Source: Candidatus Multivoradales bacterium
GTDB taxonomy: Bacteria > Acidobacteriota > Thermoanaerobaculia > Multivoradales > J023
Assembly (NCBI GenBank): GCA_965248925.1
Contig: CBDFLE010000005.1
Coordinates: 1,568,001 to 1,632,000, forward strand
Direction: 5' to 3'
DNA: 64,000 bases
Part shown: piece by piece, positions 23,618 through 39,908 of the stretch
Layout: each line of letters begins with the position of its first letter
How positions within the stretch are numbered: position 1 is the stretch's first letter
Program-made: the position numbers and the translations under genes
Notes under the pieces: generated by a model
The model's database searches: none
What the model saw: only the letters and a program-made list of their open reading frames with translations
What the model was told of the DNA's origin: nothing

Positions 23618-24672
23618 AGGTCGCGGTCTGCGCGCTGGATCCGCCGACCAGCGGCATCGGCGGCGCCGAGCTGCTCACCCGCGGCTTGTGCCGGGCGCTG
23701 CGGACCGCGGATCACCAGGTCGAACTGATCCGGCGGCCCTTTCACTACCAGCCCCCTGAAGCGGTCAGCAGCAGCATGGCGGCCTGGCAGGGAGCCCTCG
23801 ATGAAGTCGAGGCGGAACGGGTTGTCTGCCTGCAATTCCCGACCTACCTGGCAGCCCACCCGCGGCGCGTGCTGTGGCTCCTGCATCAACACCGCGCGGT
23901 TTACGAACTGTGGGACACCCCGCTCGGTGGCAGCCTGTCGAGCCACCACGCGGGCCGCCAGCTGCGCCGGACCATCCACCAAACAGACCACCGAGTCTTG
24001 CCCCAGATCAACCCACGATTCACCATCGGCGCTCGGGTGTCGGCGCGACTCGAAGAATTCACCCAACTCAGCAGCCAAGTCCTGTGGCACCCACCACCAG
24101 CCGCCGACAAGTTCTACCGCCGACCTGCCGAGCCCTTCATTTTCGCCCCCAGCCGACTGGAAGATCACAAGCGGCAGCATCTGTTGATCGACGCCATGCG
24201 CCATGTGCGTAGCCCGGTAGTGGCCTTGCTGGCCGGCGAAGGAGGGCAGCGCCTGGCTCTCGAGCAGCGGATCGAGCGCTACGGATTGGGCGACCGCGTG
24301 CGGCTGCTCGGCGAGGTCGACTCCGATACCCTGCGGGCCCTCTACTCCCTCTGCCTGGCGGTCTTCTTCGCCCCTTTCGACGAGGACTATGGCTACGTCA
24401 CGCTGGAGGCCATGCTGGCGTCGAAACCGGTTCTGACCACCCTCGACGCCGGCGGGCCGCTAGAATTCGTCGTTGCCAACGAGACCGGCTGGGTGGTCGC
24501 CCCCGAAGCCAAAGCCATCGCCGATCAGATCGATCGCTTGGCCGGCAATCGGCGTTTGTCAGAGGAGCTGGGAAGCGCCGGCCGGCAGCACTACGACTCG
24601 CTAGGGATCTCCTGGCAACGAGTAGTGAGCACCTTGCTGGCGAAGGCGCCACCCGCGGCTGACCTGCGATAG
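23614..24672 (+). CDS. Glycosyltransferase family 4
   Basis: ATGA overlap with the upstream stop. GGAE, SRLEDHKRQ, DEDYGYVTLEAM and DAGGPLE motifs. Confidence 0.9.
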   Translation: MKVAVCALDPPTSGIGGAELLTRGLCRALRTADHQVELIRRPFHYQPPEAVSSSMAAWQGALDEVEAERVVCLQFPTYLAAHPRRVLWLLHQHRAVYELWDTPLGGSLSSHHAGRQLRRTIHQTDHRVLPQINPRFTIGARVSARLEEFTQLSSQVLWHPPPAADKFYRRPAEPFIFAPSRLEDHKRQHLLIDAMRHVRSPVVALLAGEGGQRLALEQRIERYGLGDRVRLLGEVDSDTLRALYSLCLAVFFAPFDEDYGYVTLEAMLASKPVLTTLDAGGPLEFVVANETGWVVAPEAKAIADQIDRLAGNRRLSEELGSAGRQHYDSLGISWQRVVSTLLAKAPPAADLR

Positions 24673-24703
24673 GTTCGCTAAGATAGGTCTCAGCCTCAAC
24701 ACC

Positions 24704-27187
24704 ATGAAAATCGCCATCCTAGCTCCCAGCCCCGTGCCCTTCACCGTAGGTGGCGCCGAGCGTTTCGTCTGGGGCTTGCTCGACCACTTCAATCGGGCAA
24801 CACCGCACCGCGCCGAGCTGATCAAGCTGCCGCTGCACGAGAGTGGTTTCTGGCAGCTGGTCGGCTCCTATCGGGCGTTCTCGCGCCTCGATCTGGACCA
24901 CTTCGATCTGGTGGTGTCGACCAAGTATCCGAGCTGGATGGTTCATCACCGCCACCATCGGGTGTTGATGCTGCACAAGCTGCGCGGGCTCTACGACACC
25001 TATCCGAACCCTCCAGCAGACCCGGCCGACCTTCACCCGGCGGTCAGCAAGGTCCGCGAACTGCTGCATCAGCCGCCGAATCGCGAGTCGCTGGCGGTGC
25101 TTTTCGACCACCTTGATCGGGCACGTCGCGATCGCTCCCTGCCGCTGGCTGCCCTGCGCTTCCCCGGCCCCTTGGCTCGCGAGGTGGTGCACTTTCTCGA
25201 CGCCGTGGGCCTGGCGCCGCCAGCGATCAGCGGCTACGCGGCGATCTCGCACAACGTGCGCCAGCGGCAGGACTATTTCCCCGCCGGCAGTGAGGTCACA
25301 GTCTGCCATCCACCGCCAGCCCATCGCTGCCCCGATAGCGACGGCGGACAGGGCTACTTCCTCACCCTGGCGCGCTTCGACAACGGCAAGCGAGTTCGCT
25401 TGATGGCTGAAGCCTACCGCTTGGCGAGCACCGAGCTGCCCTTCAAGATCGTCGGCAGTGGACCCCAAGAGGCCGAGTTGCGCGCCATGGCGGCGGCGGA
25501 TCCGCGCCTGGAATTGCTCGGCGCGGTAGCCGAGGCAGCCGTACCAGCCCTCTATGCGGGCGCGCTGGCGGTGCTTTACACCCCTTACGACGAGGACTAT
25601 GGGCTGGTGGCGGCCGAGGCCCTGGCGACCGGCAAACCGGTGATCACCACCGCCGATGCAGGGGGTCCGTTGGAACTGGTCGAGCATGGAGTCAATGGCC
25701 TGGTGGCAGCGCCCGAGGCGACCGCCCTGGCCGCTGAAATCGACCTCCTGGCCAGCACCCCGGAACTGGCCGCCGAACTCGGCGCCGCCGGCCTGAGGGT
25801 CGCCGCCGAACTCACTTGGGAACGTCTGACGGAAGACCTGTTGAGAACTTCGCCAGGCGCCAGCGCCGCCGTCCAGCGCCAGCGACGACCCAAGCTCACC
25901 GTCGCTACCACCTACCCTATTTATCCACCGCGGGGCGGCGGCCAGAGCCGCGTTTTTCACCTCTACCGCCACTTGGCGGAGCACTGGGACATCGAAGTGG
26001 TGAGCTTCACCGACCATGGCGAGGCAGCTTTCGCAGGCCCCATCGCCGCCGGCCTGAGGGAGATCCGATTGCCTAAATCGGCGGTGCATGAGCATCGCGA
26101 GCGGCTGATCGCCGAAACCCTCGGTGGCTTGCCGGCCACTGATCTGCTGATGCCTGAGCTGTGGTCGTTGACCCCTGAATATGGCGAGCGGCTGCGCGCT
26201 TCAGGTCAGGACGCCGAAGCGGTCGTCGCTTGCCAACCCTACTTGTGGCCGGCAATCGACGGCTGTCTGGCCAACAAGCCGCTGTTTTATGACTCACAGA
26301 ACGTCGAAGCGAATCTCAAGGCCGCCGTGCTGCCGGACAACCCGCTCGGCCAACACTGGCTCGCCGAGGTTCGCCGAGTCGAAGGCGAGTGCTGCCGGCA
26401 AGCCCTCCTGACCTTGGTTTGCAGCCTCGACGAAGGCACCGAGATGGCGACCCTCTACGGCCTCGACGCGGACCGTTTTAGACTGGTGGCCAACGGTACC
26501 GACCTCGATTCGGTCACCTACGTCGATCTCGAAGAACGCCTCCTAGCAAGGCTCCGTGGCGGCCTCGAAGACACCTTCTGCGCCCTCTTCATGGGCAGCT
26601 GGCATCCTCCCAATCTGAAAGCACTGGAAGTGATCCTCGCCCTGGCAGAGTCCACGCCCGATATCTGTTTTCTGGTCATGGGCAGTGTTGGTCAAGCGGT
26701 GCGACGTGACGCCCTGCCCGGCAATGTGGCACTGCTCGGAGTGGTCGACAACCCAACCAAAGATCTGCTGCTGGGCATCGCCGATGTGGCGCTAAACCCT
26801 ATGTCCAATGGCGCCGGCACAAATCTGAAAATGCTCGATTATCTGGCCGCCGGCCTGCCGCTGCTGTCGACCCCTTTCGGCGCCCGCGGCCTCGACCTCG
26901 ACCCCGAGCGCCATCTCTGGTTAGCCGATCTCGACGACCTCGGCGAGGCTCTCGCCCAGTTGCGTTCAAGCAGTGACGAGGAACGAGCCAAGCGCGCCGC
27001 CGCCGGCTACCAGCAGGTCCGCCAGCACTACAGCTGGCGCTCCATCGCCGAGCACTATCACCGCGCTTTGCGGCTGGCGCTGGGGCTCGCCGAAGAGTCC
27101 TCCAGCCTTCCCGCCGCGCCGATCCGCACCAACTCCAGTCGCTCCACCGCCAGCGCCAACAGGCGCTCGTCATCGGCGGTCCGCTGA
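24704..27187 (+). CDS. Tandem two-domain glycosyltransferase family 4
   Basis: Domain 1 has GGAE..DEDYGLVAAEA. Domain 2 has PPRGGGQSR..GTNLKMLDYLAAGLP. Confidence 0.88.
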   Translation: MKIAILAPSPVPFTVGGAERFVWGLLDHFNRATPHRAELIKLPLHESGFWQLVGSYRAFSRLDLDHFDLVVSTKYPSWMVHHRHHRVLMLHKLRGLYDTYPNPPADPADLHPAVSKVRELLHQPPNRESLAVLFDHLDRARRDRSLPLAALRFPGPLAREVVHFLDAVGLAPPAISGYAAISHNVRQRQDYFPAGSEVTVCHPPPAHRCPDSDGGQGYFLTLARFDNGKRVRLMAEAYRLASTELPFKIVGSGPQEAELRAMAAADPRLELLGAVAEAAVPALYAGALAVLYTPYDEDYGLVAAEALATGKPVITTADAGGPLELVEHGVNGLVAAPEATALAAEIDLLASTPELAAELGAAGLRVAAELTWERLTEDLLRTSPGASAAVQRQRRPKLTVATTYPIYPPRGGGQSRVFHLYRHLAEHWDIEVVSFTDHGEAAFAGPIAAGLREIRLPKSAVHEHRERLIAETLGGLPATDLLMPELWSLTPEYGERLRASGQDAEAVVACQPYLWPAIDGCLANKPLFYDSQNVEANLKAAVLPDNPLGQHWLAEVRRVEGECCRQALLTLVCSLDEGTEMATLYGLDADRFRLVANGTDLDSVTYVDLEERLLARLRGGLEDTFCALFMGSWHPPNLKALEVILALAESTPDICFLVMGSVGQAVRRDALPGNVALLGVVDNPTKDLLLGIADVALNPMSNGAGTNLKMLDYLAAGLPLLSTPFGARGLDLDPERHLWLADLDDLGEALAQLRSSSDEERAKRAAAGYQQVRQHYSWRSIAEHYHRALRLALGLAEESSSLPAAPIRTNSSRSTASANRRSSSAVR

Positions 27188-29394
27188 GCATCGGGGAGGT
27201 CGAAGGCAATGATGTTCGGGGTCCGGACGCTGAGTATTGCCGCCGGCACCAGCAAGCTTCGATCACTGGCGTCGAAACCCTCGAACCACAACTCGCCGAG
27301 GTCTTTCCCGTTGATCTGCACCCGCACCCGCTGACTACCGAGAGCGCGGGCACGCAGCTGCAATCGATGGTCCCAGCCTGCCGCGCCCTTAGGCAGCGGA
27401 TAAGCCAGCCGGGAGCGTTCGCCATCGGTCCACCGCCAACCAGCCTCGGCACGGCTAAAGCCATCCAGGAAGTAAGGCTCGGCATCGAAGCCCAGCCCGG
27501 CCCGCGGCGCCTCGAGCGGTGAGATCCACAGCGAACGCAAGGCAATCCCCACTACCCGACCATCTAGGGCGCTGGCCGGAGCCGCACCCGGCACCAGAAC
27601 CTGCAGAGAGTGGCTCGCTGGGGAACCGCCAGCCGCAGCCTCGGCACTGCTCAGGAAGGCTTCTCTGGAGAAGGCAAAACGGCCGATCTGAGGCTCGAAA
27701 CCAGCGTAGACCCAGCGGCCTAGGGTCGTGCCATCCAGGCGCAACTCGACCTCCTGCCGCCCATTCCCGCTGGCTTCCAAATGGAGCACATAGCTCGACC
27801 CGCGCGGCGCCTTCTGCAAGCGAAAATGCAAAGAGGAAGTCCCGTCCGACCACTGCCATTGTCGTTCCGGATGATGCCAGCCATCAAACACCGCCCGCTC
27901 GCCCCCGGGCTCGATCGCTTCGCCAAAGGAGTAGGGCAGCAACTCAAGCCACTGGTGTTTGAGATAGCGCGCCTCCAGATTGCCGAGCCGGGCCAAGAAC
28001 TGCGGGTGACGCCAATCGAAGAGCAGATGTGGGTTGCGCTCCAAATCGGGCATCACGCTCCACAGCCGCGGCGCTGGATTGAACAGCCCCTGCCAGACAT
28101 GGATCCAAATGGCGACAACCCCGAGCAGCAGATAGGCGAAAGCCCACCCGCGAGCCACCGTCGACGATTGGCCAGGGCCGCGCAAGCGCTCCCAAACCAA
28201 AGCCGCCAGCAGCGCGACAGGAGGCATCATTTCGGTCAAGAGCCGCGGCCCAAAAGAGTATCCGCCCCACCAATAGCCCTTGATCGAAGCGCCCAGCAAA
28301 TGACTACCCCACCACACCGCCAGCAGCCAAAAGAGCGGCTGCTGGACCAGCTGCCGCAGCTTGAAAACCACTCCCGCAAGCACCACGATCACAAACGGAC
28401 AGAAGATCAGCAACCCGCGGGACGGACTGATCAGATTGCCCTGCAAGCCGTGCAACAGCGGCGTCCAGGCAGTCAGCCGTCGCGGCGAGTAGTACTCGGG
28501 GATTTGCTCACCCAACAGCCACCATCCAGCGACCGCCGCGAGAGCCACCACCACCGCCGCAGCAGCTGCCCACCAAAGGGCCCGGCGCGTCTGCGACCGG
28601 GCGTAAAGAAGGGCGCCATAAACCACCACGGCGACCACGAAAAATCCCGCCGTCGGCCGACAGGCGTAAGCTGCGACCAGCAAGATCCCGACATAGAGCG
28701 GCCGCGAGCGGGCGCCCGGCAGGCGCCGCGCCCGCACCAACTGGCGCAACGCCAACAACAGGAAAACCAAAACAAAGTCAATGCTCCACAAACCCGTGGC
28801 CAGGGTGCTTATCAGCATGCTGCCGAGGGTGCTCAGCAGAGCGATCACCAAGCCAGCACGGTGGCCTACGAGCAGTCGGCAAATCTGGTAGAGCAGCACG
28901 AAGATCCAAGCCGTCAGCAGCGCCGAGAACACATCCTGCAACGCCGCCTCGTCAGCCAACAACAGCATGTTGAAGCCCAGCCGACGTGCTAGCCATACCG
29001 CCGGCACGGACAGTAGCGGCACGACCGGCGAAAAATAGAAACTGCCTCCATCACGATGCCGAATCCGGTAGTCCCCATCGAGATCATAGGTCAGCAGCGG
29101 ATGGTCGCGGTAGACCTCCAGATCGGGGCTGTGGTGTTCGAGCCAGGCTTGGGAGGCGAGTAACAGCAGGGCCGAGTCGGAGTTCGCGGTCTCGATCGGC
29201 GTACCCCAAGCCAACGCGGCGATCAACAACCCCAAGACAAAGGTACGCAGGGGGTGCTCGGCAAACCAGATCGGAGGTGGTTTGCAAACCACCGGGACTG
29301 CTGTACCATCGGGGCCTGACGAATCAGGGTTCCTGCTGCTCGAATGTGCCTTGTTTGACGTTCGGCCGCTTATTGAAGATGTTTTTGAACTCAT
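27058..29394 (-). CDS. Polytopic membrane protein, GT-C-like, with two C-terminal periplasmic beta-sandwich repeats
   Basis: About 11 hydrophobic segments, LISPSRGLLIFCP, WWGGYSFGPRLL, and repeats GWHHPE..WQWSDG / GFSRAE..WRWTDG. Start uncertain. Confidence 0.72.
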   Translation of the reverse strand: MSSKTSSISGRTSNKAHSSSRNPDSSGPDGTAVPVVCKPPPIWFAEHPLRTFVLGLLIAALAWGTPIETANSDSALLLLASQAWLEHHSPDLEVYRDHPLLTYDLDGDYRIRHRDGGSFYFSPVVPLLSVPAVWLARRLGFNMLLLADEAALQDVFSALLTAWIFVLLYQICRLLVGHRAGLVIALLSTLGSMLISTLATGLWSIDFVLVFLLLALRQLVRARRLPGARSRPLYVGILLVAAYACRPTAGFFVVAVVVYGALLYARSQTRRALWWAAAAAVVVALAAVAGWWLLGEQIPEYYSPRRLTAWTPLLHGLQGNLISPSRGLLIFCPFVIVVLAGVVFKLRQLVQQPLFWLLAVWWGSHLLGASIKGYWWGGYSFGPRLLTEMMPPVALLAALVWERLRGPGQSSTVARGWAFAYLLLGVVAIWIHVWQGLFNPAPRLWSVMPDLERNPHLLFDWRHPQFLARLGNLEARYLKHQWLELLPYSFGEAIEPGGERAVFDGWHHPERQWQWSDGTSSLHFRLQKAPRGSSYVLHLEASGNGRQEVELRLDGTTLGRWVYAGFEPQIGRFAFSREAFLSSAEAAAGGSPASHSLQVLVPGAAPASALDGRVVGIALRSLWISPLEAPRAGLGFDAEPYFLDGFSRAEAGWRWTDGERSRLAYPLPKGAAGWDHRLQLRARALGSQRVRVQINGKDLGELWFEGFDASDRSLLVPAAILSVRTPNIIAFDLPDAQRTADDERLLALAVERLELVRIGAAGRLEDSSASPSASRKAR

Positions 29395-29474
29395 TGGAAA
29401 GTCTATGGCGCGCCGATCCCGAACATCTTACACTCGTTGGCAGCCCACCCCCGGGCAGCCCCACCCGAGCTGAT

Positions 29475-30503
29475 ATGGCACATCCTCACTCGGTCCCGTC
29501 CTTTCTCACGGCGGGGCTGCTGGTGATAGTGCTGTTCGCATTGCTGCCTGGAGTCGAGCCCGAAGCTCAGACCGAGGTCACCGACTCGAACGCTGCCACG
29601 GCCCCTGCGGAAGACCTGCCCGCGGAAAGCTTGCCCGCAGCCTTTTTCCTCGGCCCGCAAGCCTGCTTGCAATGCCACTTCGAGCGCTTTGAAAGCTACG
29701 AGAACAGCCCCCACGGGCTGATCAACGATCCCCGCACTCCGGCGTCGCGTAACGGCTGCGAGACTTGCCACAACCCCGGCAGCAACCACGTCGGAGGGGG
29801 TGGCGGCCGCGGCATCGGCGAAATGCAGAACTTCACCGACGCGACACCGGTGGGGGTGCGCAACGGGGTCTGCCTGCAATGCCACAACCGCGGCTATCCG
29901 GCGCTGTGGATGGGCAGCATGCACGAGACCCGGCAACTCGCCTGCACCGACTGCCACAGCATTCACAAGGGCCATCGCAAACTGCTAGTCGAAGCCAGCC
30001 AACCGCAGGTCTGCACTCGCTGCCACCAGCTGATTCGCGCTCAACTGCTGCGCCCCTCTCGCCATCCAATCCGTGAAGAAAAGCTGGTCTGCACCGACTG
30101 CCACAATCCCCACGGCACCCTCACCGAGCGGCTGATCGACGCCAATACGGTGAACGAGAAGTGCTACGACTGCCATGCCGAAAAGCGTGGCCCGTTCCTC
30201 TGGGACCATCCGCCGGTGCGCGAGAGCTGCCTCAATTGCCATGAGCCCCACGGCTCAACCCACGAGCCGCTGCTCAAGCTCAAACGCCCCTTCCTCTGCC
30301 AGCGTTGTCACGCCGACCCGGACCACGCCAACGTTCTGTGGGCGCTGAGCGAGGAAGAAGCCGCCGCCGGCCTGTCGCCCTACGAACTGCCGGACCGCCG
30401 CAGCGGCCGTCCGGCGGCGCAGCTCTTCAACCGGAGCTGTACCAATTGTCACGTCAACTTCCACGGCAGCAACCACCCCTCCGGGCGTTGGTTCCATCGC
30501 TAG
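29475..30503 (+). CDS. mtrA: Decaheme c-type cytochrome, DmsE/MtrA/PioA/MtoA family
   Basis: Ten CxxCH motifs counted (CLQCH, CETCH, CLQCH, CTDCH, CTRCH, CTDCH, CYDCH, CLNCH, CQRCH, CTNCH), plus EKRGPFLWDHPPV and HGSNHPSG. Signal peptide from ATG 29475. Confidence 0.95.
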   Translation: MAHPHSVPSFLTAGLLVIVLFALLPGVEPEAQTEVTDSNAATAPAEDLPAESLPAAFFLGPQACLQCHFERFESYENSPHGLINDPRTPASRNGCETCHNPGSNHVGGGGGRGIGEMQNFTDATPVGVRNGVCLQCHNRGYPALWMGSMHETRQLACTDCHSIHKGHRKLLVEASQPQVCTRCHQLIRAQLLRPSRHPIREEKLVCTDCHNPHGTLTERLIDANTVNEKCYDCHAEKRGPFLWDHPPVRESCLNCHEPHGSTHEPLLKLKRPFLCQRCHADPDHANVLWALSEEEAAAGLSPYELPDRRSGRPAAQLFNRSCTNCHVNFHGSNHPSGRWFHR

Positions 30504-30517
30504 GCGAGGAGGCTAAG

Positions 30518-33031
30518 ATGCTCAAGTCCTTGAATTGCCCGCCGCTCCTAGCCACCCTCTGGCTGCTCGCCGCGGTCTGGCCAGCTTTGATCGTCGCCGA
30601 GGAAGAACACCAGCTAGAGACCGAGGCCCCCAACATCGAGGCCGAGGCCGAAGTCGAGAGTCCGCCCACTGAAGAACAAGTGATCGACATCGAACAACGC
30701 TGGCGGCTAACCCCGCGGCGCGACTTCGAGTTTCGCCTGAGCCCCAACGTTGGCCTGCGCACTCCCCTGTTGAGCCCCCTCTACAGCAAGACCCAACCCG
30801 ACTATCTCGGCACCCCGCGAGAGCGCCCCAATAATTGGGCGTTGGCGGCGTCGCTGACTACTTTGACCGCCTCGGGAGAGCGTGATTCGGGCAAGGCCCA
30901 GGAATTCCGCGACCTCAGCGACGGAGTGGCGGTGGGAGTCGACGCCCAGCTGCGCACCGCCAAGAGCTGGCTGCGGCTCAGCGGTCGCCACTTGCTGCGC
31001 GACGACCACGATGTACGTCTGGAATTGCGCCATTTCGGTGTCTTCAAGACCAGCCTCTACCTCAACGCGATTCCCCACAACTACGTCTTCGACACGCCGT
31101 CGCTCTACCGCGGTGTCGGCAGCGGTCGGCTGACTATCGACGACGCCACCCGCACCAGCTTGCAGGGCTCGACCTCATTGCAAGACGCCGCCCAGCGCGC
31201 CGAGGCGGCGGTGGCGGCGGCACCACGGGTCGATCTCGGCCACACCCGCGACCGCTTGCGCTTCGATCTCGACTTCACTCTGCTGCACCCGCTGACTGTG
31301 CAACTGCGTTTCGATCGCGAATCGCGCCAAGGGACCCGGCCGTGGAGCGGTAGCTTCGGCTTCAGCAACTTCGTCGAGATCCCCTGGCCGGTGGACTACG
31401 ACACCGAGAGCGCCCGCTTGACTGTCGAGTACGCCAACAAGAAATCCTTCTTCAAAGCGAGCTATCGGGCGAGTTCCTTCGACAACAACATCAGCAGCGT
31501 GCAGTTCGACAATCCCTGGCGACTGACCGACCAGAGCGGTTCGCCGCCAGCAATTTTAGCGAGCTATCAGAATGGCCCGGCGAGCGGTCTGATCGACCTC
31601 TATCCGACCAACGAGAGCCACGATCTGAGCTTCACCGGCCTGCTGCGCGAGCTGCCGTGGAAGGGCAATCTGTCGGCCACCGTGGCCTGGGGGCGGATGG
31701 AGCAAGACGACCCCCTGCTGCCCTTCACCACCAACACCACTATCGTGCCGGGGCAGGCGGGCAATCCTCCCTTCGACGCCTCAGACCCGGCCAACCAAGT
31801 GATCGACCGGGTGCGCAGCCAATTCGACACCCGGCTGATTCACCTCCGCTACACCGCCAAGCCGAAGCCCTTCATGCGCTTGAAGTTGCAGTTCCGCGAC
31901 TATCAAGTCAACAACGAGTCCGATCGGGTCCTCTTCCCCGGCTTCGTGGTCGAGGACGCGGCCTACCGGGCACCGGCTACCGGTTCCGACGGCTTTACTA
32001 ATGTGCCGATCGCTTGGCAACGCTCGCGGCTGAGTGGCGAACTAGCCTTCGATGTGGCCAAGAAGAGCCGGCTGACTTTCTTGCTCGAACACCGCGAGAC
32101 CGACCGCGAGTTTCGCGAAGTGGCCAAGTCGGAAGAAGACCGGTTCAAAGTCTCCTATGACTCCAAGCCCCACGACTGGCTGGAACTCAAACTCTCCTAC
32201 TTGCTTTCCGAGCGCCGCATCGACACCTACGACTTCGCCCAATTCTTCAGCGAACAAGGCAGAACCCGCTTCATCCCGGTGTTGCCGCTGCTGCGCAAAT
32301 TCGACCAGGCCGAGCGCGACCGCGATCGCTGGCAACTGATCGTCTCGTTCTACCCCAATGACTCGTTGCAAATCGTCACCTCGGCGATTGTCGGCAACGA
32401 CACCTATCCGGATTCCGAATTCGGCCTACAGAGTTCCGATCACCGCATCTATTCGGCCGATCTGGCGTGGACCGCCAACCCTCGCTTCAGCCTCTACAGC
32501 TCGCTCAGCTGGGAGAACTTCGACAAAACCCAGCGCTCACGGCAGTGGCAGTTCTTCCAAGCCGGCGACCCCTTCAATCTGGAACCTGGAGTGGCGTCGA
32601 ACAGCAATTGGCGGGCCGATCACAGCGACGATATTCAGACCTTCACCGCTGGGCTGGAGGCGGTCCTGGTGCCTGACAAAGTGAAGTTCGAATGTGTTCT
32701 GACTTGGGTCGAGACCGATGGTGAGATCCTGCTGTCGAGCCCCATCGGCGAGGTCGATGCCAATCCCTTTGATCCGGCCGATTTTCGCTCGGTCGACGAT
32801 GTTGAGATCCTCACCCTGCAACCCAAGCTCGAACTCACCCTGGGCGAGCATCTGGCCCTTGAAGCTTCTTACTTCCGCGAGGAATACAGCATTGACGACA
32901 TCGGTACTCAGGGCTATCGCCTGGTGCCGGTGACCCGCGACGGTGCGTTCAACGGCGCCATTCTGATGGGCAGCCAACCCACCAACTACGATCTCGACGT
33001 GGTCTACCTGACTTTGAAGCTGGGTCTGTGA
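30518..33031 (+). CDS. mtrB: MtrB/PioB-family outer-membrane beta-barrel
   Basis: GAGGAGG RBS and signal peptide. About 840 aa of amphipathic beta-strands (KAQEFRD, EIPWPVDY, FDNP, LRKFDQAERDR), directly after the decaheme gene. Confidence 0.9.
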   Translation: MLKSLNCPPLLATLWLLAAVWPALIVAEEEHQLETEAPNIEAEAEVESPPTEEQVIDIEQRWRLTPRRDFEFRLSPNVGLRTPLLSPLYSKTQPDYLGTPRERPNNWALAASLTTLTASGERDSGKAQEFRDLSDGVAVGVDAQLRTAKSWLRLSGRHLLRDDHDVRLELRHFGVFKTSLYLNAIPHNYVFDTPSLYRGVGSGRLTIDDATRTSLQGSTSLQDAAQRAEAAVAAAPRVDLGHTRDRLRFDLDFTLLHPLTVQLRFDRESRQGTRPWSGSFGFSNFVEIPWPVDYDTESARLTVEYANKKSFFKASYRASSFDNNISSVQFDNPWRLTDQSGSPPAILASYQNGPASGLIDLYPTNESHDLSFTGLLRELPWKGNLSATVAWGRMEQDDPLLPFTTNTTIVPGQAGNPPFDASDPANQVIDRVRSQFDTRLIHLRYTAKPKPFMRLKLQFRDYQVNNESDRVLFPGFVVEDAAYRAPATGSDGFTNVPIAWQRSRLSGELAFDVAKKSRLTFLLEHRETDREFREVAKSEEDRFKVSYDSKPHDWLELKLSYLLSERRIDTYDFAQFFSEQGRTRFIPVLPLLRKFDQAERDRDRWQLIVSFYPNDSLQIVTSAIVGNDTYPDSEFGLQSSDHRIYSADLAWTANPRFSLYSSLSWENFDKTQRSRQWQFFQAGDPFNLEPGVASNSNWRADHSDDIQTFTAGLEAVLVPDKVKFECVLTWVETDGEILLSSPIGEVDANPFDPADFRSVDDVEILTLQPKLELTLGEHLALEASYFREEYSIDDIGTQGYRLVPVTRDGAFNGAILMGSQPTNYDLDVVYLTLKLGL

Positions 33032-33042
33032 GGAGGTCACCG

Positions 33043-34032
33043 ATGCGCTACCTACCGACCCCCGCAGGCCTACTAAAGGCCCTCGTCGCAGTCTTGCTGC
33101 TGCTTCATCTGGCAGCCACGGCGACCGCCCAGGACGATTGGGGCGACGAGAGCGACAGCGCCTGCGGCGGCCTGCTCGACGATCCCCAAAGACTGGCCGA
33201 AGTGCTGGCGCAAGTGCCCAAGTACGGCACCTCCTGGGCCTTGGTCTTCTCCGACCAGCTCGGCGACCGCGCGCCAAGCGCCGAGCAGCAAGATCTGTCG
33301 TCGCTTTCGGTAGCCACCTTGGCCGACAGCCCGGCGCTGGCGATGGCCGCCGAACTCGGCCAGCCGAACACCACCCCCTACCCACAGGCCAACGCCGGCA
33401 GCGCCGTCGAAGACGTGCTGGCGGGGACGATCGACAGCGCCCTACTATGGGCCCCCTTGGCCGGTCTGGCGGTGCTCGAACTCGACTTCGACTACACCTT
33501 GAGCCTGCTCGGCGTCGGCCCACCGGCTGGACCCGGCGCGGCAAATGCTGGCGCTAGTGCCGCCGCGGCAGCGCCCCTCGACCCTTGTGCCGAAGAAATC
33601 CTCATTACCCTCGAATCCTACGGCGTGGTGCCAGCTGAAAAACGCCAACCGGTCTACATCCGTGACTTGATCCTGTTGCCGGCCCCCGAGCGCAGCCTCG
33701 ACAGCGCCCATTTGGGGGCGCCGATCTACGCCCTGCAATGCGCCAAATGTCATGGCGTCGAAGGGATCGCCGCCAGCGACTCCCTAGCGCCGGTCGATCT
33801 GCAGATCTCGGTGCGCCGCTTCAGTTGGCCAGGCTTTCTCTACATCGCGCTCAACGGCCGGCCGCAGAACGGCATGCCGGGCTTCCGTGGCGCCATCGAG
33901 CGCCAGCAGCTGGAGGAGATCTATCAGTACGTCCGCGAGCGTAGCTACGGTACCCTGACGGTCACCGGCAACTACCCGGTACCCGGCAGCGAGTCAGCAG
34001 CAGTCGCCCAAGACTCGTCATCCGACCCCTAG
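33043..34032 (+). CDS. Periplasmic fusion: MxaJ/XoxJ-like binding-protein segment + monoheme cytochrome c
   Basis: Signal peptide. YGTSWALVF and DVLAGTIDSALLWAPLAG resemble MxaJ/XoxJ motifs. C-terminal CAKCH with GMPGF axial Met. Confidence 0.7.
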   Translation: MRYLPTPAGLLKALVAVLLLLHLAATATAQDDWGDESDSACGGLLDDPQRLAEVLAQVPKYGTSWALVFSDQLGDRAPSAEQQDLSSLSVATLADSPALAMAAELGQPNTTPYPQANAGSAVEDVLAGTIDSALLWAPLAGLAVLELDFDYTLSLLGVGPPAGPGAANAGASAAAAAPLDPCAEEILITLESYGVVPAEKRQPVYIRDLILLPAPERSLDSAHLGAPIYALQCAKCHGVEGIAASDSLAPVDLQISVRRFSWPGFLYIALNGRPQNGMPGFRGAIERQQLEEIYQYVRERSYGTLTVTGNYPVPGSESAAVAQDSSSDP

Positions 34033-34054
34033 TCCAGAAACAAGGAGCGCAGAT

Positions 34055-34858
34055 ATGACCTCCCGACCCACCCTCCACCGGCGCCTGCTGCAAACTGCGC
34101 TAGTGCTGATTTTGACCGCCGGCTTCCTCGCCCCGACCACCGCCAGCGCCGATGGCACCATCGAAGGCAAGGTGGTCTTCAGCGGCAAACCGCGGCGCAA
34201 CCCGCTGATCCGCATGGGCGCCGATCCCAACTGCCTGGAGATCAACCAGGGCAAGAAAGTCGTGAACCACATCGTCAAACTCGGCGAAGGCGGTGCGGTC
34301 GGCGAGGTCTTCGTCCACCTCACCGGTGAAGTAACCTACAGCGGCGGCGTGCCAACCAAGCCCGTGGTGATCGTTCAAGAAGGCTGCATCTACCATCCCA
34401 AGGTCAGCGGTGGCATGGTCGGCCAGACCCTCAAGGTGATCAACAAAGACGCTACCTTGCACAACATCCATGCGATCTCCGACAAACGCAACAACTTCAA
34501 CGTCGGCCAGCCCAAAGCGGGCATGGAATACGAGACCAAGCTCGCTTCCGCGGAAGTCATGCTAAAGGTGAAATGCGACGTCCACCCGTGGATGCAGGGC
34601 TACATCGGTGTGCTCTCCCATCCCTACTTCGCAGTCACTAACGACGACGGTACTTTCCGCATCGAGAACGTGCCGGCTGGCAGCTACTCCCTACAAGCCC
34701 TGCAAGCCCGCCTGGGCACCGAAGACCAGCAGATCGAGGTCAAGGACGGCGAAACCGTGACCGTCGAATTCACCTACGGCCCGCCCACCTCCGCCGAGCT
34801 TTTCGACGGCGGCTTGCCGGTTAAAGAGCTGACCGTCCACACCGCCGCGGCACGCTAG
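34055..34858 (+). CDS. Secreted cupredoxin-like protein with carboxypeptidase-regulatory-like domain
   Basis: Signal peptide. LHNIH and KCDVHPWM give a His/Cys/His/Met type-1 copper ligand pattern. FAVTNDDGTFRIENVPAGSY is a CarboxypepD_reg-like motif. Confidence 0.75.
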   Translation: MTSRPTLHRRLLQTALVLILTAGFLAPTTASADGTIEGKVVFSGKPRRNPLIRMGADPNCLEINQGKKVVNHIVKLGEGGAVGEVFVHLTGEVTYSGGVPTKPVVIVQEGCIYHPKVSGGMVGQTLKVINKDATLHNIHAISDKRNNFNVGQPKAGMEYETKLASAEVMLKVKCDVHPWMQGYIGVLSHPYFAVTNDDGTFRIENVPAGSYSLQALQARLGTEDQQIEVKDGETVTVEFTYGPPTSAELFDGGLPVKELTVHTAAAR

Positions 34859-34903
34859 GGTCGTAGAGAGGCCGACCGCCGGTAGCTTGAGCGCAAACCC
34901 CGG

Positions 34904-36007
34904 ATGAGCCTCACTATCGGCATCGACGGCCGCTACCTTGAGCCGAGCTACCCAGGAATCGGCCGTTACTTGCGCGGGTTATTAAGCGCACTGCCCGCCG
35001 CCGCCGAAGGCGAACGCTTGCGGCTGCTACAGCACCCTGGAGCCGGCCCAGCGCCAGCCGGATTCGAGCCCGTGCCCTGCCCCACCCCACTCCGTGGTCT
35101 GGGGCACCAATTTAGCCTGCCAGCCGCCGCGCGGAGTCTGGACTTGGATCTCTTTCACGCTCCCTTCTATCTCACCGCCTATCGCATGCCCTGCCCCTGG
35201 GTGGTGACGGTTTACGACGCCATCCCGGCGCGCTGGCCCTTGCCAACGCTGAGCGCTCGCTTAGCCTGGCGACTGGCGATGCGTCTTGCCCTGCGCCGCG
35301 CCCGCCACATTTTGACCTTGACGCAGGCCGCCAAGGACGAGCTGGCAACACACTTCGGCATCTCGTCGCAGAAGATAACCGTCACCCCGGCGGCCGCCAG
35401 CAAGCAGTTCGCCCCCCAATCACCGACTGCCATCGAGGCGCTGCGCCAACGCCTGCGGCTAGACCAGCCCTACGTTCTCTATGTCGGTGTCGACCGGCCA
35501 CATAAGAACCTGCCGAGACTGATCGAGGCGTGGGCCGAACTGCGCCGCTCGGGAGTCTTCCACGGCGAGTTGGTGCTGGCCGGCCAGCGTGATCCACGCT
35601 TTCCCCAGAGCGAACAGACCGTCCGCCGGCTGGGACTCAACGACGTGCGCTTCCTCGGACCGGTCGATGAGACCGACTTGCCGGCTCTCTATGCCGGTGC
35701 CGAGCTATTCGTCCTGCCCTCCCTGCACGAGGGCTTTGGCCTGCCAGTGATCGAGGCCATGGCCTGCGGCACTGCGGTGGCTTGTGCCAACGGCTCCAGC
35801 CTGCCCGAAGTCGCAGGCAGCGCGGCACGGTTGTTCGACGGCGAGCGACCTGCAGCTATCGCCGAGGCCCTGGCCGATGTGTTGAGCGCTCCAGATCTGC
35901 GCCAAGAACTCGAGCGCCGCGGCCAACAACGCGCCGCGGCCCTATCCTGGAACAACACCGCCCGACTGACCGTCGAGGTCTACCGCCGAGTGGCCGCTGG
36001 AATCTAA
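34904..36007 (+). CDS. Glycosyltransferase family 4 (mannosyltransferase-like)
   Basis: GIGRY, HKNL, PSLHEGFGLPVIEAMACG and SLPEV motifs. Confidence 0.92.
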   Translation: MSLTIGIDGRYLEPSYPGIGRYLRGLLSALPAAAEGERLRLLQHPGAGPAPAGFEPVPCPTPLRGLGHQFSLPAAARSLDLDLFHAPFYLTAYRMPCPWVVTVYDAIPARWPLPTLSARLAWRLAMRLALRRARHILTLTQAAKDELATHFGISSQKITVTPAAASKQFAPQSPTAIEALRQRLRLDQPYVLYVGVDRPHKNLPRLIEAWAELRRSGVFHGELVLAGQRDPRFPQSEQTVRRLGLNDVRFLGPVDETDLPALYAGAELFVLPSLHEGFGLPVIEAMACGTAVACANGSSLPEVAGSAARLFDGERPAAIAEALADVLSAPDLRQELERRGQQRAAALSWNNTARLTVEVYRRVAAGI

Positions 36008-36010
36008 GCG

Positions 36011-37129
36011 GTGCGCATCCTGCACGTCTACAAAGACTACCCACCGGTGCTCGGTGGCATCGAAGGCCATCTCCAGCTGCTCGCCGAAGGCCAGGCCAGG
36101 CTCGGTCATCAGGTCACCGTACTGGTCACCGCGCGCGGCCCGCGCACCACCGTTCGCCACGAAAACGGCGTCGAAGTCATCCGCGCCGCCCGCCTAGCCA
36201 CCCTCGCCTCGACCCCCCTCAGCCTGAGCTTGCCTCGCCAGTTGGCGACACTGCGTCCCGACCTGACCCATCTACAATTCCCCTATCCACCGGGCGAGCT
36301 GGCCCAGCTGCTGCTCGGCCGTTCGCGAGCCACGGTAGTGACCTACCAGAGCGACATCGTCCGTCAGCGCCTGCTCGGCTGGCTCTACCGGCCGCTGATG
36401 TGGCGTCTGCTGCGTCGTGCCGACGCGATCCTCGCCACCAGCGCGGCCTACCGCGACAGCTCGCCGGTGCTGAGCCGGCTCGGTGAGCGGTGCCGGGTCG
36501 TGCCCCTGGGCATCGATGTCGAGCGCTTTAGCCAGTCAGACCCACGGTCCGTCACGGACTTCGAGAGACGATTCCCAGAGCCAAGGATTCTGTTTGTCGG
36601 CAGGCTGCGTTACTACAAAGGAGTCGAGCATCTGATCGATGCCATGGCCCAGCTCGGTAAAGCGAGCCTGTTGATCGCCGGCCGCGGCCCACTCGAAGAC
36701 AAATTACATCGTCAGGCAGCGGCTTCACCGGTCGCGGATCGCATCCATTTCCTCGGCGACATTCCGGCCGCCGACCTACCGGCCCTCTATCAAGCCGCCG
36801 ATATCTTTGTCCTACCAGCCACCCGCCGCAGCGAAGCCTTCGGCTTGGTACAAGTCGAAGCCATGGCCGCCGGCCTGCCGGTGATCTCCACCGAACTCGG
36901 CACCGGCACCAGCTTCGTCAACCGCCACGGCGAAACCGGCCTGGTCGTGCCGCCGGCAGATACCGACGCGCTGGCGACAGCGCTGAGCGAGCTGCTCGGC
37001 TCGGTTGAGGAACGGCGACGGCTAGGGGACGGGGCTCGACGCCGCGCTTGGCAACGCTTTGATGTTCGGCAGATGATTGAGAGGACTCTGGAGGTTTATT
37101 CTGAAGTGCTGACAGACCACACTCACTGA
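36011..37129 (+). CDS. Glycosyltransferase family 4
   Basis: KDYPPVLGGIE, GRLRYYKG and SEAFGLVQVEAM motifs. Confidence 0.92.
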   Translation: MRILHVYKDYPPVLGGIEGHLQLLAEGQARLGHQVTVLVTARGPRTTVRHENGVEVIRAARLATLASTPLSLSLPRQLATLRPDLTHLQFPYPPGELAQLLLGRSRATVVTYQSDIVRQRLLGWLYRPLMWRLLRRADAILATSAAYRDSSPVLSRLGERCRVVPLGIDVERFSQSDPRSVTDFERRFPEPRILFVGRLRYYKGVEHLIDAMAQLGKASLLIAGRGPLEDKLHRQAAASPVADRIHFLGDIPAADLPALYQAADIFVLPATRRSEAFGLVQVEAMAAGLPVISTELGTGTSFVNRHGETGLVVPPADTDALATALSELLGSVEERRRLGDGARRRAWQRFDVRQMIERTLEVYSEVLTDHTH

Positions 37130-37240: not shown

Positions 37241-37735
37241 TCAGGACTGTGATCCCAGGACGAAGCGCGCCCGCTCACCGCGCAGCATAGCGTATGGCGT
37301 CATGCACTTGATCCCGAGGCCGATACAGGCATCGGGGATCTTGATCCTGCGCTCGCTGGCCGATGGTATCTCGTGAGTCACCACGGTATGGCCGTAGGCG
37401 TGGGCCTGGGGGACCAAGTAGTAGTCCGCCACCTGCAGGAAGGTGTTGACCGCGGAGGGAAAGTAGCTCTGGCTGGTGGCCCAGACACTGACCACGGACA
37501 GGGAAGACAGCAAGGCCGACTCGGGCTGCAGAAAGAAACCCGCGCCGCGCTCGGCCGCCCAGAGCGACAGCTCGTCTGCCCCTGCTTGCACTTCGTCGCC
37601 CACTTTCTCCACGCTGTAGACAGTACCGGCCGTATTCTGCTCGATCAACCACTCCCAGAACGCCGGACAGAAGTCCAGCCCATAGTGCAGGTTCTTGGCC
37701 CGGATGAAAACGTCGGCATCGAGAAGGTAAGCCAT
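37241..37735 (-). CDS. DUF4411-family PIN-like protein
   Basis: YLLDADVFI, FW.WL, ADYYLV, VVTHE and KIPDAC motifs. Coupled to the upstream gene by a TAATG overlap. Confidence 0.88.
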   Translation of the reverse strand: MAYLLDADVFIRAKNLHYGLDFCPAFWEWLIEQNTAGTVYSVEKVGDEVQAGADELSLWAAERGAGFFLQPESALLSSLSVVSVWATSQSYFPSAVNTFLQVADYYLVPQAHAYGHTVVTHEIPSASERRIKIPDACIGLGIKCMTPYAMLRGERARFVLGSQS

Positions 37736-38880
37736 TACACCGGAATCCCCAAACTGTGGCCGAGTTCCCGGAAAGTGGCCATCTTCTTGAAGCCCAGCAG
37801 CCGAAAGGACTCAGTGAACGACGAGCGCCCTTCGAGGGTGCTGACCACCAGCGCCCGTGCGAAGCGCCGGCTCACCCGCGCTCCCAGGGTGAGGTAGAAG
37901 TTGCCGCCGCTGCCGCGAGGCAGGCTGTGTAGCCGTTCTAGCTCAGCGTGGAAGGCGGTCCAGTAGGTCGAGTCTTCGAACCCGCCAGCATCGTGGATCC
38001 GGCGGAGAATCACCAGCGTGCTCACTTTGAACCGTCGTGCCAAGCGATGGATCTCGCCCGCCAGTTCAGCGCCTGAATCAAAGGCTTCACGAACGGCAAC
38101 CAGCGGCACGAGGACTTCGGCAGCCACCTGATTGCACCAACGTTCGACCCGGTGTTTCGGCGGGCTCGAAGCCTGGGAATCCGAAAGGGCCGATTGGCCG
38201 AGCCAGAGGTGAACGAGTTCATGGGCCAAGGTGAACATCTGGGCAGCCTTGGTGTCGCTGCCGTTGATGAACACCAGCGGCGCCAGCTCGTCGACCAAGG
38301 CGAAGCCGCGGAACTCTCGCGGGTCGAGTTTGCGCCGGTTGTTGCTGCCCACCACTCCGCTCACCATGACCAAGATTCCCGCGGCGTCCGCCAATCGGAT
38401 AAAACGGCGCAGGGCTTCGGTCCAGGTCCCTAGCTGACGGCGTTCTTCGAGGTCGAGTCCAAGCTCCTGACGAATACGGGCAGCTGTCGACACGACATCG
38501 TCCAAGATTTCGACCGAGCCGACGAAGCCCAGTGGAGTTTCGCCCATGGTGCGAGCAAAGTCTCGATACCACTCCTGGCGTTGCTGGCAAAGGTAGAGCG
38601 TCTCCAAAAGATCCGCACTCGGCTTGGCGACCGGCTGGTCGGCTATGGTACGGAAATCAGGGATGGGGACGGACTCAGCCGGCGGCTCCGGGAGGAATAG
38701 CAAGCCGATCGGGGTATGAGTGCTGTTGGCAAACTTCTCGAGCTGCTTCAAAGTCGGTAGCCGCTCGCCCCGCTCCCAAGCGGCTAGCTGCGGAATCCGC
38801 CGGGTCAACTCGGCCGGCTCGATGCGGGAACGCTCGCAGGCCCAGCGCAATAGCTCCGGGCGAATACGGACGCGATTCAT
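37735..38880 (-). CDS. XRE-type HTH + ImmA/IrrE metallo-endopeptidase fusion
   Basis: N-terminal HTH (WERGERLPTLKQL), FRGFAL, FTLAHELVH (HExxH) and E.WCN.VAAE. Confidence 0.9.
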   Translation of the reverse strand: MNRVRIRPELLRWACERSRIEPAELTRRIPQLAAWERGERLPTLKQLEKFANSTHTPIGLLFLPEPPAESVPIPDFRTIADQPVAKPSADLLETLYLCQQRQEWYRDFARTMGETPLGFVGSVEILDDVVSTAARIRQELGLDLEERRQLGTWTEALRRFIRLADAAGILVMVSGVVGSNNRRKLDPREFRGFALVDELAPLVFINGSDTKAAQMFTLAHELVHLWLGQSALSDSQASSPPKHRVERWCNQVAAEVLVPLVAVREAFDSGAELAGEIHRLARRFKVSTLVILRRIHDAGGFEDSTYWTAFHAELERLHSLPRGSGGNFYLTLGARVSRRFARALVVSTLEGRSSFTESFRLLGFKKMATFRELGHSLGIPV

Positions 38881-39271: not shown

Positions 39272-39619
39272 CTATTCGCGGTCGATCGCTGCCAGAAGAG
39301 CTTTCAGCTGAGGCAAGAGCTGCCGCAGCTCGTCGTTCGCAGTCTTCCAAACCATGTCGTGATTGATGTCGAAGTAGGCGTGGATCAGGCGGTTGCGCAT
39401 CGATACGATCAGCGGCCAAGGAATGTCGGGCGCCTCACTTCTGGTCGCCTCAGACAGCTGGCCCGCTGCCTCACCGATAACCTCGATCGCCCTGATCAGG
39501 GCGAAGAGGAGCATGCGATCGGAATCTAGATCAGCGCGTTCTCGACCCGATACGAATTCAAGCGCTGTCTCCGCGGCTTCGATGATGTGTAGCACCCGGA
39601 CTCGATCGTCAGGCTGCAT
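39272..39619 (-). CDS. hepT: HEPN/DUF86 ribonuclease toxin (HepT-like)
   Basis: IEVIGEAA, IPW and MRNRLIHAY (RX4H motif with adjacent Tyr). Confidence 0.9.
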   Translation of the reverse strand: MQPDDRVRVLHIIEAAETALEFVSGRERADLDSDRMLLFALIRAIEVIGEAAGQLSEATRSEAPDIPWPLIVSMRNRLIHAYFDINHDMVWKTANDELRQLLPQLKALLAAIDRE

Positions 39620-39908
39620 ACTGCACCTCAGCCTGCCGTACCACCTCTTCTCGAAAGTGGCGGCTCAGGTCTTGCGCCGTTCGCAGGTCTACGCGGCGAC
39701 CGCGCAACAAAGCCGACAACTCCGCTTCGATCGCCGCCAAGCCCAGGAGTCCTGGGACCGCACCGGGCTCGAATTCCACCAATAGGTCAACATCGCTTTC
39801 GAGCCTATCCTCGCCTTTGAGAACGGAGCCGAAAAGAGACAGTTGGGCGATGCGATGACGGCGGCAAAGCCTCTCCAAGTCTTCCTTGTCCAGTGGAAGT
39901 CGTGTCAT
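39609..39908 (-). CDS. mntA: Minimal nucleotidyltransferase antitoxin (MntA-like)
   Basis: LFGSVLKGEDRLESDVDLLVEF (GSx10DxD) and RVDL. Overlaps hepT. Confidence 0.9.
   Translation of the reverse strand: MTRLPLDKEDLERLCRRHRIAQLSLFGSVLKGEDRLESDVDLLVEFEPGAVPGLLGLAAIEAELSALLRGRRVDLRTAQDLSRHFREEVVRQAEVQYAA

Follow-up and report, generated by a model that had tools for sequence, protein, structure and literature searches.

Gene and domain organisation

We analysed a 64,000-nucleotide stretch of the genome of Candidatus Multivoradales bacterium, a member of the Acidobacteriota (GCA_965248925.1, contig CBDFLE010000005.1, positions 1,568,001 to 1,632,000). The whole of this stretch is called the window here, and coordinates are counted from its first letter. 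Its plus strand carries four consecutive genes, separated by gaps of 11-45 bp, which encode a decahaem c-type cytochrome of the DmsE/MtoA/MtrA family (29403..30503, probable start ATG 29475, MAHPHS...), an outer-membrane beta-barrel porin of the MtrB/PioB family (30515..33031), a fusion of half a XoxJ protein with a cytochrome c (33043..34032) and a secreted protein that we read as a type-1-copper cupredoxin (34055..34858). The third of these genes is the subject of this study. Homology and domain architecture leave little doubt that its product is a soluble monohaem class I cytochrome c with His/Met ligation, the N-terminal half of which is a single lobe derived from XoxJ/MxaJ.

The open reading frame (ORF) spans 33028..34032 (+), and residues are numbered throughout from its GTG at 33028. 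Translation from this alternative start gives 334 aa, while the ATG at 33043 gives 329 aa. The ATG is the likelier start, because GGAGG lies just upstream of it and the database copy of the protein (P0001, 329 aa) begins there. A first-pass annotation, made from the letters of the window alone, had described an MxaJ/XoxJ-like half-domain joined through an Ala/Pro linker to a cytochrome c, and every motif that it quoted is present in this ORF: ACGG at residues 45-48, YGTSWALVF at 66-74, AVEDVLAGTIDSALLWAPLAG at 126-146, DPCAEE at 185-190, CAKCH at 238-242 and GMPGF at 282-286. The J-type/cytochrome identity of the ORF is well beyond chance. The N-terminus (33043..33129, +) looks like a Sec signal peptide, as read off the sequence, with a hydrophobic helix that ends in ATA, followed by QD; the AlphaFold2 (AF2) model has a helix at residues 12-36. 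We infer a periplasmic location for the mature protein.

Exactly four Cys residues are found in the fusion protein, at positions 46, 187, 238 and 241, of which the latter two form the haem-binding pair of CAKCH. Cys46 (33163..33165, +) is Cys in 41 of 42 aligned rows, the remaining row having a gap, and aligns with a Cys of MxaJ. Cys187 (33586..33588, +), where the helix after the linker begins (CAEEI..LESYGVVPAE), is present in all 42 rows and invariant in a narrower alignment of 35 rows. Such conservation fits the earlier suggestion that the two extra Cys could form a disulfide, and a Cys46-Cys187 bond is plausible.

The class I cytochrome c domain occupies residues ~208-308 (33649..33951, +). 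Pfam family PF13442 (Cytochrome_CBB3) matches residues 227-302 with E 3.3e-8 and 34.2 bits against a cut-off of 27, and is the sole Pfam match in the fusion. VIA-align places the C-terminal domain onto cytochrome c552 (9vr0) with Z 10.8, and sequence matches of the haem domain in the PDB include the haem domain of a quinohaemoprotein alcohol dehydrogenase (1yiq), c6 and CcoP. The haem motif CAKCH (33739-33753) is invariant in the 42-row alignment. The distal haem ligand, Met283 of GMPGF (33874-33876, +), is Met in 37 of these rows and His in 5. His in this position is found in one subclade linked to Mto-type genes (L020, L043-L046, P0037-P0040; 5 of 35 Mto-type rows), where it would make the ligation bis-His and probably lower the potential.

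The half-J module, residues 41-205 (33148..33642, +), consists of one Rossmann-like lobe with flanking helices and contains an invariant WAPLAG(L) motif. NCBIfam model TIGR03871 (MoxJ_2) matches residues 45-150 over profile positions 57-170 of 232 with E 1.1e-7 and 31.8 bits, a score that falls far short of the curated cut-off of 212.15. Searched against the PDB, a profile of the whole family finds XoxJ (6onp_A, E 9.7e-9) and MxaJ (9ism_B, E 1.5e-3) along with many class I cytochromes. A profile of the N-terminal part, built from 32 of the 40 available rows after removal of near-duplicates, finds the same two chains with E 9.8e-13 and E 2.1e-6, respectively. Amino-acid binding proteins score 8e-4 or worse, so that XoxJ/MxaJ are nearer than generic binding proteins. 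One chain departs from this, 5sv6 at 6e-6, which bears the title 'Extracellular solute-binding protein, family 3'.

The AF2 model (mean pLDDT 83.6, pTM 0.71) contains one five-stranded alpha/beta lobe, residues 63-168, with strands at 70-75, 95-98, 115-118, 137-141 and 158-163. The Ala/Pro/Gly-rich linker, residues ~165-184 (33520..33579, +), coincides with a dip in pLDDT and varies in length among homologues. The first-pass annotation had staked its claim in advance on structural likeness to type II periplasmic binding proteins, and these are the top Foldseek matches of the N-terminal domain (E 1.3e-4 and weaker). VIA-align lays ~97 residues onto lobe II of ~225-residue family-3 binding proteins with Z ~10 and rmsd ~2.1 A. 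The two-lobe type II fold with its two crossovers is not formed, the model having a single lobe, and about half of the fold is thus retained. Only ~28 mature residues precede lobe II in the model. Lobe I is reduced to this short N-terminal segment and the one helix after the linker, each bearing one conserved Cys. The lobe-I motif (V/I)C(A/G)DPxNLP is not in the sequence of the fusion, as had been noticed earlier for ADPNNLP, and is kept in the full-length fusions P0068, P0155 and P0161 (VCADPDNLPFS and variants).

The four-gene cassette

The decahaem cytochrome (+) scores 269.7 bits with TIGR03508, against a cut-off of 192, and has ten CXXCH motifs; the porin (+) matches PF11854 with E 2e-84 over positions 10-632 of 635. 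The gene that precedes the decahaem is a minus-strand PMT_2-like glycosyltransferase, and no MtrC-type gene adjoins the cassette in the window. The module is therefore of the MtoAB/PioAB type and not a full MtrCAB. The Mtr operon proposed in the first-pass annotation stands as far as the MtrA- and MtrB-type neighbours are concerned; its MtrC-type member is missing.

We collected 50 loci from genome contigs (7), metagenome contigs (35) and a sample of 401 genomes of the window's phylum, and identified neighbouring genes by tblastn with the window proteins and by Pfam. The named records of the seven genome-contig loci are Acidobacteriota metagenome-assembled genomes (MAGs) or 'uncultured bacterium'. 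In the phylum sample, six genomes have a match to the fusion and none of them belongs to the window's own order. Among the loci with an identity of 38% or above, 25 extend 400 bp or more upstream, and every one of these has an MtrB gene next door, on the same strand in 23 and divergently in 2. The MtrA decahaem is present in all 12 loci whose upstream flank reaches 4 kb or more. Of the 40 loci that continue for 300 bp or more downstream, 39 have the cupredoxin there, L026 being the exception. These counts overstate independence, because several loci are near-copies of each other (L018/L042, L065/L066 and L022/L025). The outer flanks of eight Mto-type loci have nothing in common, and since they are unrelated between loci, the conserved unit is the four-gene cassette itself.

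The operon structure is deduced from the short gaps and the conserved gene order. A scan of 28900-35300 for promoters and terminators gave a weak promoter-like site in mtrB and a minus-strand terminator-like site, both at or below the expectation from shuffled sequence. The DNA of the window is listed for four sequencing runs of one study and for no RNA run. Genes of sigma-54 activators were seen near two loci only in the flank scan.

Family and phylogeny

The fusion has 40 close homologues of ~300 aa each, and a HMMER search of 1.84 billion representatives returned 21 proteins at E<=1e-30, which constitute the family proper. The homologue alignment has 35 rows, the window protein and 34 matches, with P0001 (the window's own copy), P0008, P0014, P0015, P0019 and P0023 omitted; CxxCH, WAPLAGL and Cys187 are invariant in it, and Cys46 nearly so.

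More distant relatives differ in architecture. In P0068, P0155 and P0161 a full-length MoxJ_2 protein (290-303 bits, over the TIGR03871 cut-off) is followed by a C-terminal cytochrome c, and P0096 and P0184 are weaker examples of a full binding protein with a cytochrome. P0058, P0060, P0061, P0070 and P0075 (~320 aa) are permuted, with a MoxG-like cytochrome first and the half-J module last; the module retains the Cys, WAPLAG and the C-terminal LESYGVVP helix. As judged from sequence, half-J is a self-contained unit, found both before and after a cytochrome, and this makes it a candidate new domain family. No Pfam model among the matches obtained covers it.

Some relatives adjoin enzymes that depend on pyrroloquinoline quinone (PQQ). 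These PQQ-context loci are L026, L022 and all genome loci of the f19 family, with 33-39% identity to the window protein. Downstream of the homologue in these loci stands either a full-length SBP_bac_3 (XoxJ-like) gene together with a PF01011 PQQ dehydrogenase or a GSDH-type (glucose/sorbosone dehydrogenase-like) dehydrogenase. In L038 (L038:5807-9928, genome G006) a PQQ dehydrogenase, a full XoxJ-like binding protein and a permuted fusion stand in a row. Loci were assigned to classes by their neighbours, because 38% identity, tried as a proxy for context, misfiled L026 (39%, PQQ context). A second half-J paralogue adjoins a GSDH-type beta-propeller and a HEAT-repeat protein (L037:7582-9954 in G006, L030 and L031), which suggests that the family works with PQQ enzymes of more than one class.

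A maximum-likelihood tree of 45 rows was drawn from the window and 40 near-full-coverage loci and from five full-length fusions, with 9 partial loci and 2 exact duplicates left out. The half-J cytochromes all fall into one group (support 100/99). Within it, the 34 Mto-type rows form a single group (100/99) and the PQQ-context rows form two lineages at the base. With the full-length fusions as outgroup, the tree reads as an origin beside PQQ dehydrogenases, followed by one recruitment into the Mto cassette.

PQQ enzymes

Could the fusion still serve a quinoprotein? The first-pass annotation had supposed that it is an adaptor between such a dehydrogenase and the haem wire, and alcohol or sugar oxidation would then be discharged to an extracellular acceptor. 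The XoxJ-derived lobe and the sister proteins next to PQQ dehydrogenases speak in favour of this link. The genome of the window (G000, 96.9% complete) contradicts it. As the same annotation had noted, no PQQ dehydrogenase adjoins the fusion; moreover, none was found in the window or elsewhere in the genome, in which TIGR03075 reaches at best 33.7 bits against a cut-off of 480 and PF01011 at best 26.5 bits, from short single propeller repeats. Profile searches of this genome found neither another MoxJ copy nor PqqC. PF13360 (PQQ_2) gave 35 matches, but it also matches in 11 of 14 control genomes and was discarded as a quinoprotein marker in favour of TIGR03075 and PF01011; it is the BamB-type propeller repeat. 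A 480-aa PQQ_2 (BamB-like) propeller encoded in the window at 12008-13450 (minus) is not a PQQ dehydrogenase.

Because the PqqC search matched none of the 14 control genomes, it was tried on genomes expected to possess PqqC. All four f19 genomes gave both PqqC (~300 bits) and PQQ dehydrogenases (160-250 bits). Seven Mto-type genomes were tested, that of L016 being left out, and completeness values are given for G000 and G278. Neither PqqC nor a strong PQQ dehydrogenase was found in six of the seven (G000, G278, G401, G402, G403 and G404); in the 99% complete G278 there is a single weak match to PF01011 (47 bits). The seventh, G405 (the genome of L021), is the only one with PqqC and dozens of PQQ dehydrogenases. 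No PQQ enzyme is encoded in any flank scanned. The fusion thus occurs together with PQQ genes in one of seven Mto-linked genomes and in four of four f19 genomes of PQQ context, and the adaptor role falls for the window's genome. We conclude that the quinoprotein link is ancestral and not current, because PQQ enzymes are missing here and the residues by which MxaJ contacts MxaF are not conserved (see Discussion). It holds for the sister lineages and not for the window's clade.

The f19 genomes also carry an MtrB/PioB porin elsewhere (~334 bits; G006:C1:334137-336251, G096 and G132), with no J-cytochrome adjoining.

Downstream cupredoxin

The product of 34055..34858 (+) ends in a CarboxypepD_reg (prealbumin-like) domain (PF13620, E 9e-8) and gives a weak match to amicyanin. 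Of the 29 available sequences 24 were aligned, and all 24 rows share its presumed copper ligands H136, C174, H177 and M180 (C-x2-H-x2-M). Two paralogues in the genome of the window keep these ligands. One, with 38% identity, immediately precedes COX1-COX3 (G000 C6:3327204-3329573; L079:5717-10628, minus), with COX2 and ACIII genes (ActD, NrfD-like) nearby, and a further paralogue is found at G000 C6:4028757-4029380.

The cupredoxin family is present in 212 of the 401 genomes of the phylum sample, a tally that includes the unpublished G024, G152 and G049. Mto linkage is seen in 2 of the best 30 loci of the family and COX genes within 1.5 kb in 6, and the other 22 have neither. The closest orthologues in f19 genomes (E ~1e-115) follow a COX3-like gene (L082, L083). 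A predicted complex of the mature cytochrome, the cupredoxin and a haem had a median score of 0.57, but one control, in which the partner was unrelated, reached 0.39, and the result counts neither in favour of binding nor against it.

Surroundings of the cassette

Glycosyltransferase genes surround the cassette in the window (20023-29394 and 34904-37129). They include several of GT4 type, a methyltransferase and the 778-aa minus-strand PMT_2-like membrane protein. L016 has a 41%-identical PMT_2-like homologue 1.6 kb downstream of its cassette, and L018 and L042 have ~31% identical glycosyltransferase homologues upstream. Two small overlapping gene pairs follow on the minus strand, one at 37241-38880 (a 381-aa protein with an HELVH motif, then a 164-aa protein) and one at 39272-39908 (115 aa and 99 aa); going by their translations, both look like toxin-antitoxin or addiction modules. 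B12-binding radical SAM enzymes are encoded on either side, at 18362-19840 (minus) and 43519-45069 (plus), and a 497-aa pentapeptide-repeat protein at 45562-47055 (minus).

Discussion

The nearest published counterpart of the fusion is cytochrome cGJ (XoxGJ) of Methylacidiphilum fumariolicum SolV, which likewise unites a c-type cytochrome and XoxJ-derived sequence in one polypeptide. According to the accessible text of PMC8498564 and bioRxiv 10.1101/2023.10.26.563981, cGJ serves XoxF as its physiological electron acceptor, is believed to hand the electrons on towards a terminal oxidase and coexists with a separate xoxJ in Methylacidiphilum. Our PQQ-context relatives share the latter arrangement, having a separate full xoxJ-like gene alongside the fusion. 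Compared with cGJ as described, the window protein differs in that the J part precedes the cytochrome and has one lobe, and that it belongs to an MtoAB-type cassette in a genome without PQQ enzymes. The domain order of cGJ is found instead in the permuted relatives, at loci L038 (G006) and L039 (G025). The absence of XoxF from the genome argues against an electron donor of XoxF type for the window protein.

With XoxJ and MxaJ themselves (TIGR03870, TIGR03871; PDB 6onp, 9ism), which are periplasmic, the fusion shares lobe II, the (L/V)W(G/A)P.AG turn and the aligned Cys. Unlike them, it has no lobe I with ADPxNLP, does not keep the L8 contacts, carries a cytochrome domain and lacks a PQQ dehydrogenase partner. 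The full-length MoxJ_2-cytochrome fusions P0068, P0155 and P0161 have the same domain order and cytochrome family as the window protein, but both lobes are kept in them.

Functionally, the closest analogues may be MtoD of Sideroxydans lithotrophicus and PioC of Rhodopseudomonas palustris, carriers encoded, like the fusion, together with a porin-decahaem pair. PioC is an iron-sulfur protein. The fusion is of unrelated origin, includes a binding-protein lobe and is joined by a cupredoxin, and its cassette has no CymA/ImoA-type gene. The family profile has 86 PDB matches, and the 60 of them that are listed include no chain under the name MtoD. The accessible text of PMC4412085 proposes MtoD as the shuttle that serves MtoAB in the periplasm; there and in the accessible text of PMC10654088, MtoD and PioC are presented as small soluble periplasmic carriers, proposed to shuttle electrons inwards.

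As to the cupredoxin, it resembles carriers of the amicyanin/rusticyanin type in its H...C-x2-H-x2-M ligand set and is unlike them in the extra C-terminal CarboxypepD_reg domain. Blue-copper proteins act in series with c-type cytochromes in methylamine oxidation and in acidophilic iron oxidation. In Sideroxydans, as the accessible text of PMC12016527 reports, MtoA was detected only on solid magnetite, where a set of cupredoxin-domain proteins was also expressed at a higher level. By analogy, these data make a pairing of MtoA with a cupredoxin plausible; they say nothing on the window protein.

We favour the view, with reasonable though far from full confidence, that the fusion is a cGJ-like carrier that was recruited as periplasmic partner of an MtoAB-type conduit, with the cupredoxin next in line and inward electron flow preferred. 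The data establish the homology, the architecture, the conserved gene order, the phylogeny and the absence of PQQ enzymes; the periplasmic location, the disulfide, the partners and, most of all, the direction of electron flow are deduced. Its ancestors would have been dedicated cytochrome acceptors of PQQ dehydrogenases, of the same kind as cGJ. One clade would then have been recruited into a mobile cassette of MtoA-like decahaem, MtoB/PioB porin, half-XoxJ cytochrome and type-1-copper cupredoxin. There the half-XoxJ cytochrome most likely trades electrons with the decahaem at its periplasmic end, in the role taken elsewhere by MtoD or PioC, while the retained J lobe, by analogy, would be a docking or scaffold module and not a ligand binder. 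From the cytochrome, electrons would pass to the adjacent cupredoxin on their way to a terminal oxidase, with extracellular Fe(II) or minerals as donors and an aerobic oxidase as acceptor. That the fusion is the periplasmic redox partner of the conduit appears probable to us; for inward flow the balance is about even. Inward flow is preferred because a paralogue of the cupredoxin adjoins haem-copper oxidase genes and because of the kinds of carriers involved.

Several observations weigh against this view. The tree was rooted at its midpoint, which coincides with the full-length fusions, and another root would alter the order of events; long branches are flagged, and two rows of the Mto group (L049 and L064) have no visible neighbours. 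A specific XoxG ancestry of the haem domain was considered and is unproven, because generic class I cytochromes (c6, c552 and CcoP) score at least as well as XoxG 6onq (E 9.5e-5). A conserved inner-membrane partner was not found in the cassette or the scanned flanks, and 22 of the 28 cupredoxin loci outside Mto cassettes have no oxidase gene within 1.5 kb. The direction of flow, moreover, we infer from the kinds of carriers and the neighbours of the paralogue alone, and MtrAB-type porin-cytochrome conduits run both ways. Residues R161, N162 and Y164 in the L8 loop of MxaJ grip MxaF, according to the accessible text of PMC12276312; in our alignment these contacts (RNQY) stand opposite a non-conserved 'eypl' stretch, so that the docking role of the lobe is an analogy without a conserved interface. 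Finally, homologues of Mtr proteins in Acidobacteriota MAGs are interpreted as iron-reduction genes in the accessible text of PMC9671151.

The latter interpretation leads to a serious rival, which we hold unlikely: outward flow, in which the same protein and its partners would carry electrons from the respiratory chain to the decahaem for extracellular Fe(III), Mn(IV) or another acceptor. The decahaem does score as a member of the DmsE family, the conduits are reversible, and iron reduction is known in the phylum (PMC8100337, accessible text). Yet neither a quinol-oxidising multihaem cytochrome of CymA/NapC type nor an outer cytochrome of MtrC type is encoded in the cassette or its flanks, the PF22113 matches of the genome are weak only, and the paralogue of the cupredoxin heads a COX1-COX3 operon. 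Characterised DmsE-family members work in reductive pathways. On the other hand, class I cytochromes with His/Met ligation and type-1 copper centres usually have high potentials, and both soluble carriers of this cassette are of these kinds.

Improbable, in our opinion, is a chaperone or assembly role of half-J, like that of MxaJ, in which it would mature a cofactor or the decahaem, porin or cupredoxin and the haem domain would be secondary. MxaJ opens MxaF for PQQ loading (PMC12276312, accessible text), and half-J is self-contained on either side of the cytochrome. Nevertheless, one lobe cannot make a two-lobe cleft, the haem motif is invariant, and a separate full-length XoxJ-like gene stands beside the fusion in PQQ-context loci, as in Methylacidiphilum; because of this separate gene, we regard the fusion as the cytochrome partner and not the chaperone. 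Least credible of all, and very improbable, is the present-day coupling of a PQQ dehydrogenase to the haem wire, given the distribution of PQQ genes described above.

XoxG-XoxJ fusions and acidobacterial MtoAB-type modules are each already in print. In a literature search that covered few subscription journals, we found no description of this fusion in an Mto/Pio operon. What appears new among the papers reached is the combination: genomes that lack PQQ enzymes and have a J-cytochrome with one lobe as the conserved third gene of a cupredoxin-bearing MtoAB cassette.

MtoAB/PioAB conduits serve as marker genes for microbial iron oxidation. To our knowledge, periplasmic carriers that link them to the respiratory chain are established in a few Proteobacteria only (MtoD, PioC). 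The cassette supplies acidobacterial conduits with a conserved carrier pair of their own, and it outlines an evolutionary route by which a cytochrome made for PQQ alcohol dehydrogenases was re-used on a porin-cytochrome wire. If electrons do flow inwards, mineral or Fe(II) oxidation would extend to members of an abundant phylum that is not usually listed among iron oxidisers. More tentatively, and with considerable doubt, we imagine a hitherto unrecognised aerobic pathway of extracellular electron uptake in soil Acidobacteriota (Thermoanaerobaculia, Vicinamibacteria and relatives), in which a portable XoxJ lobe is the docking domain, transferred from PQQ dehydrogenases to a decahaem conduit. 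Should this prove true, the lobe would be a redox 'plug' domain, re-used between unrelated sources of electrons.

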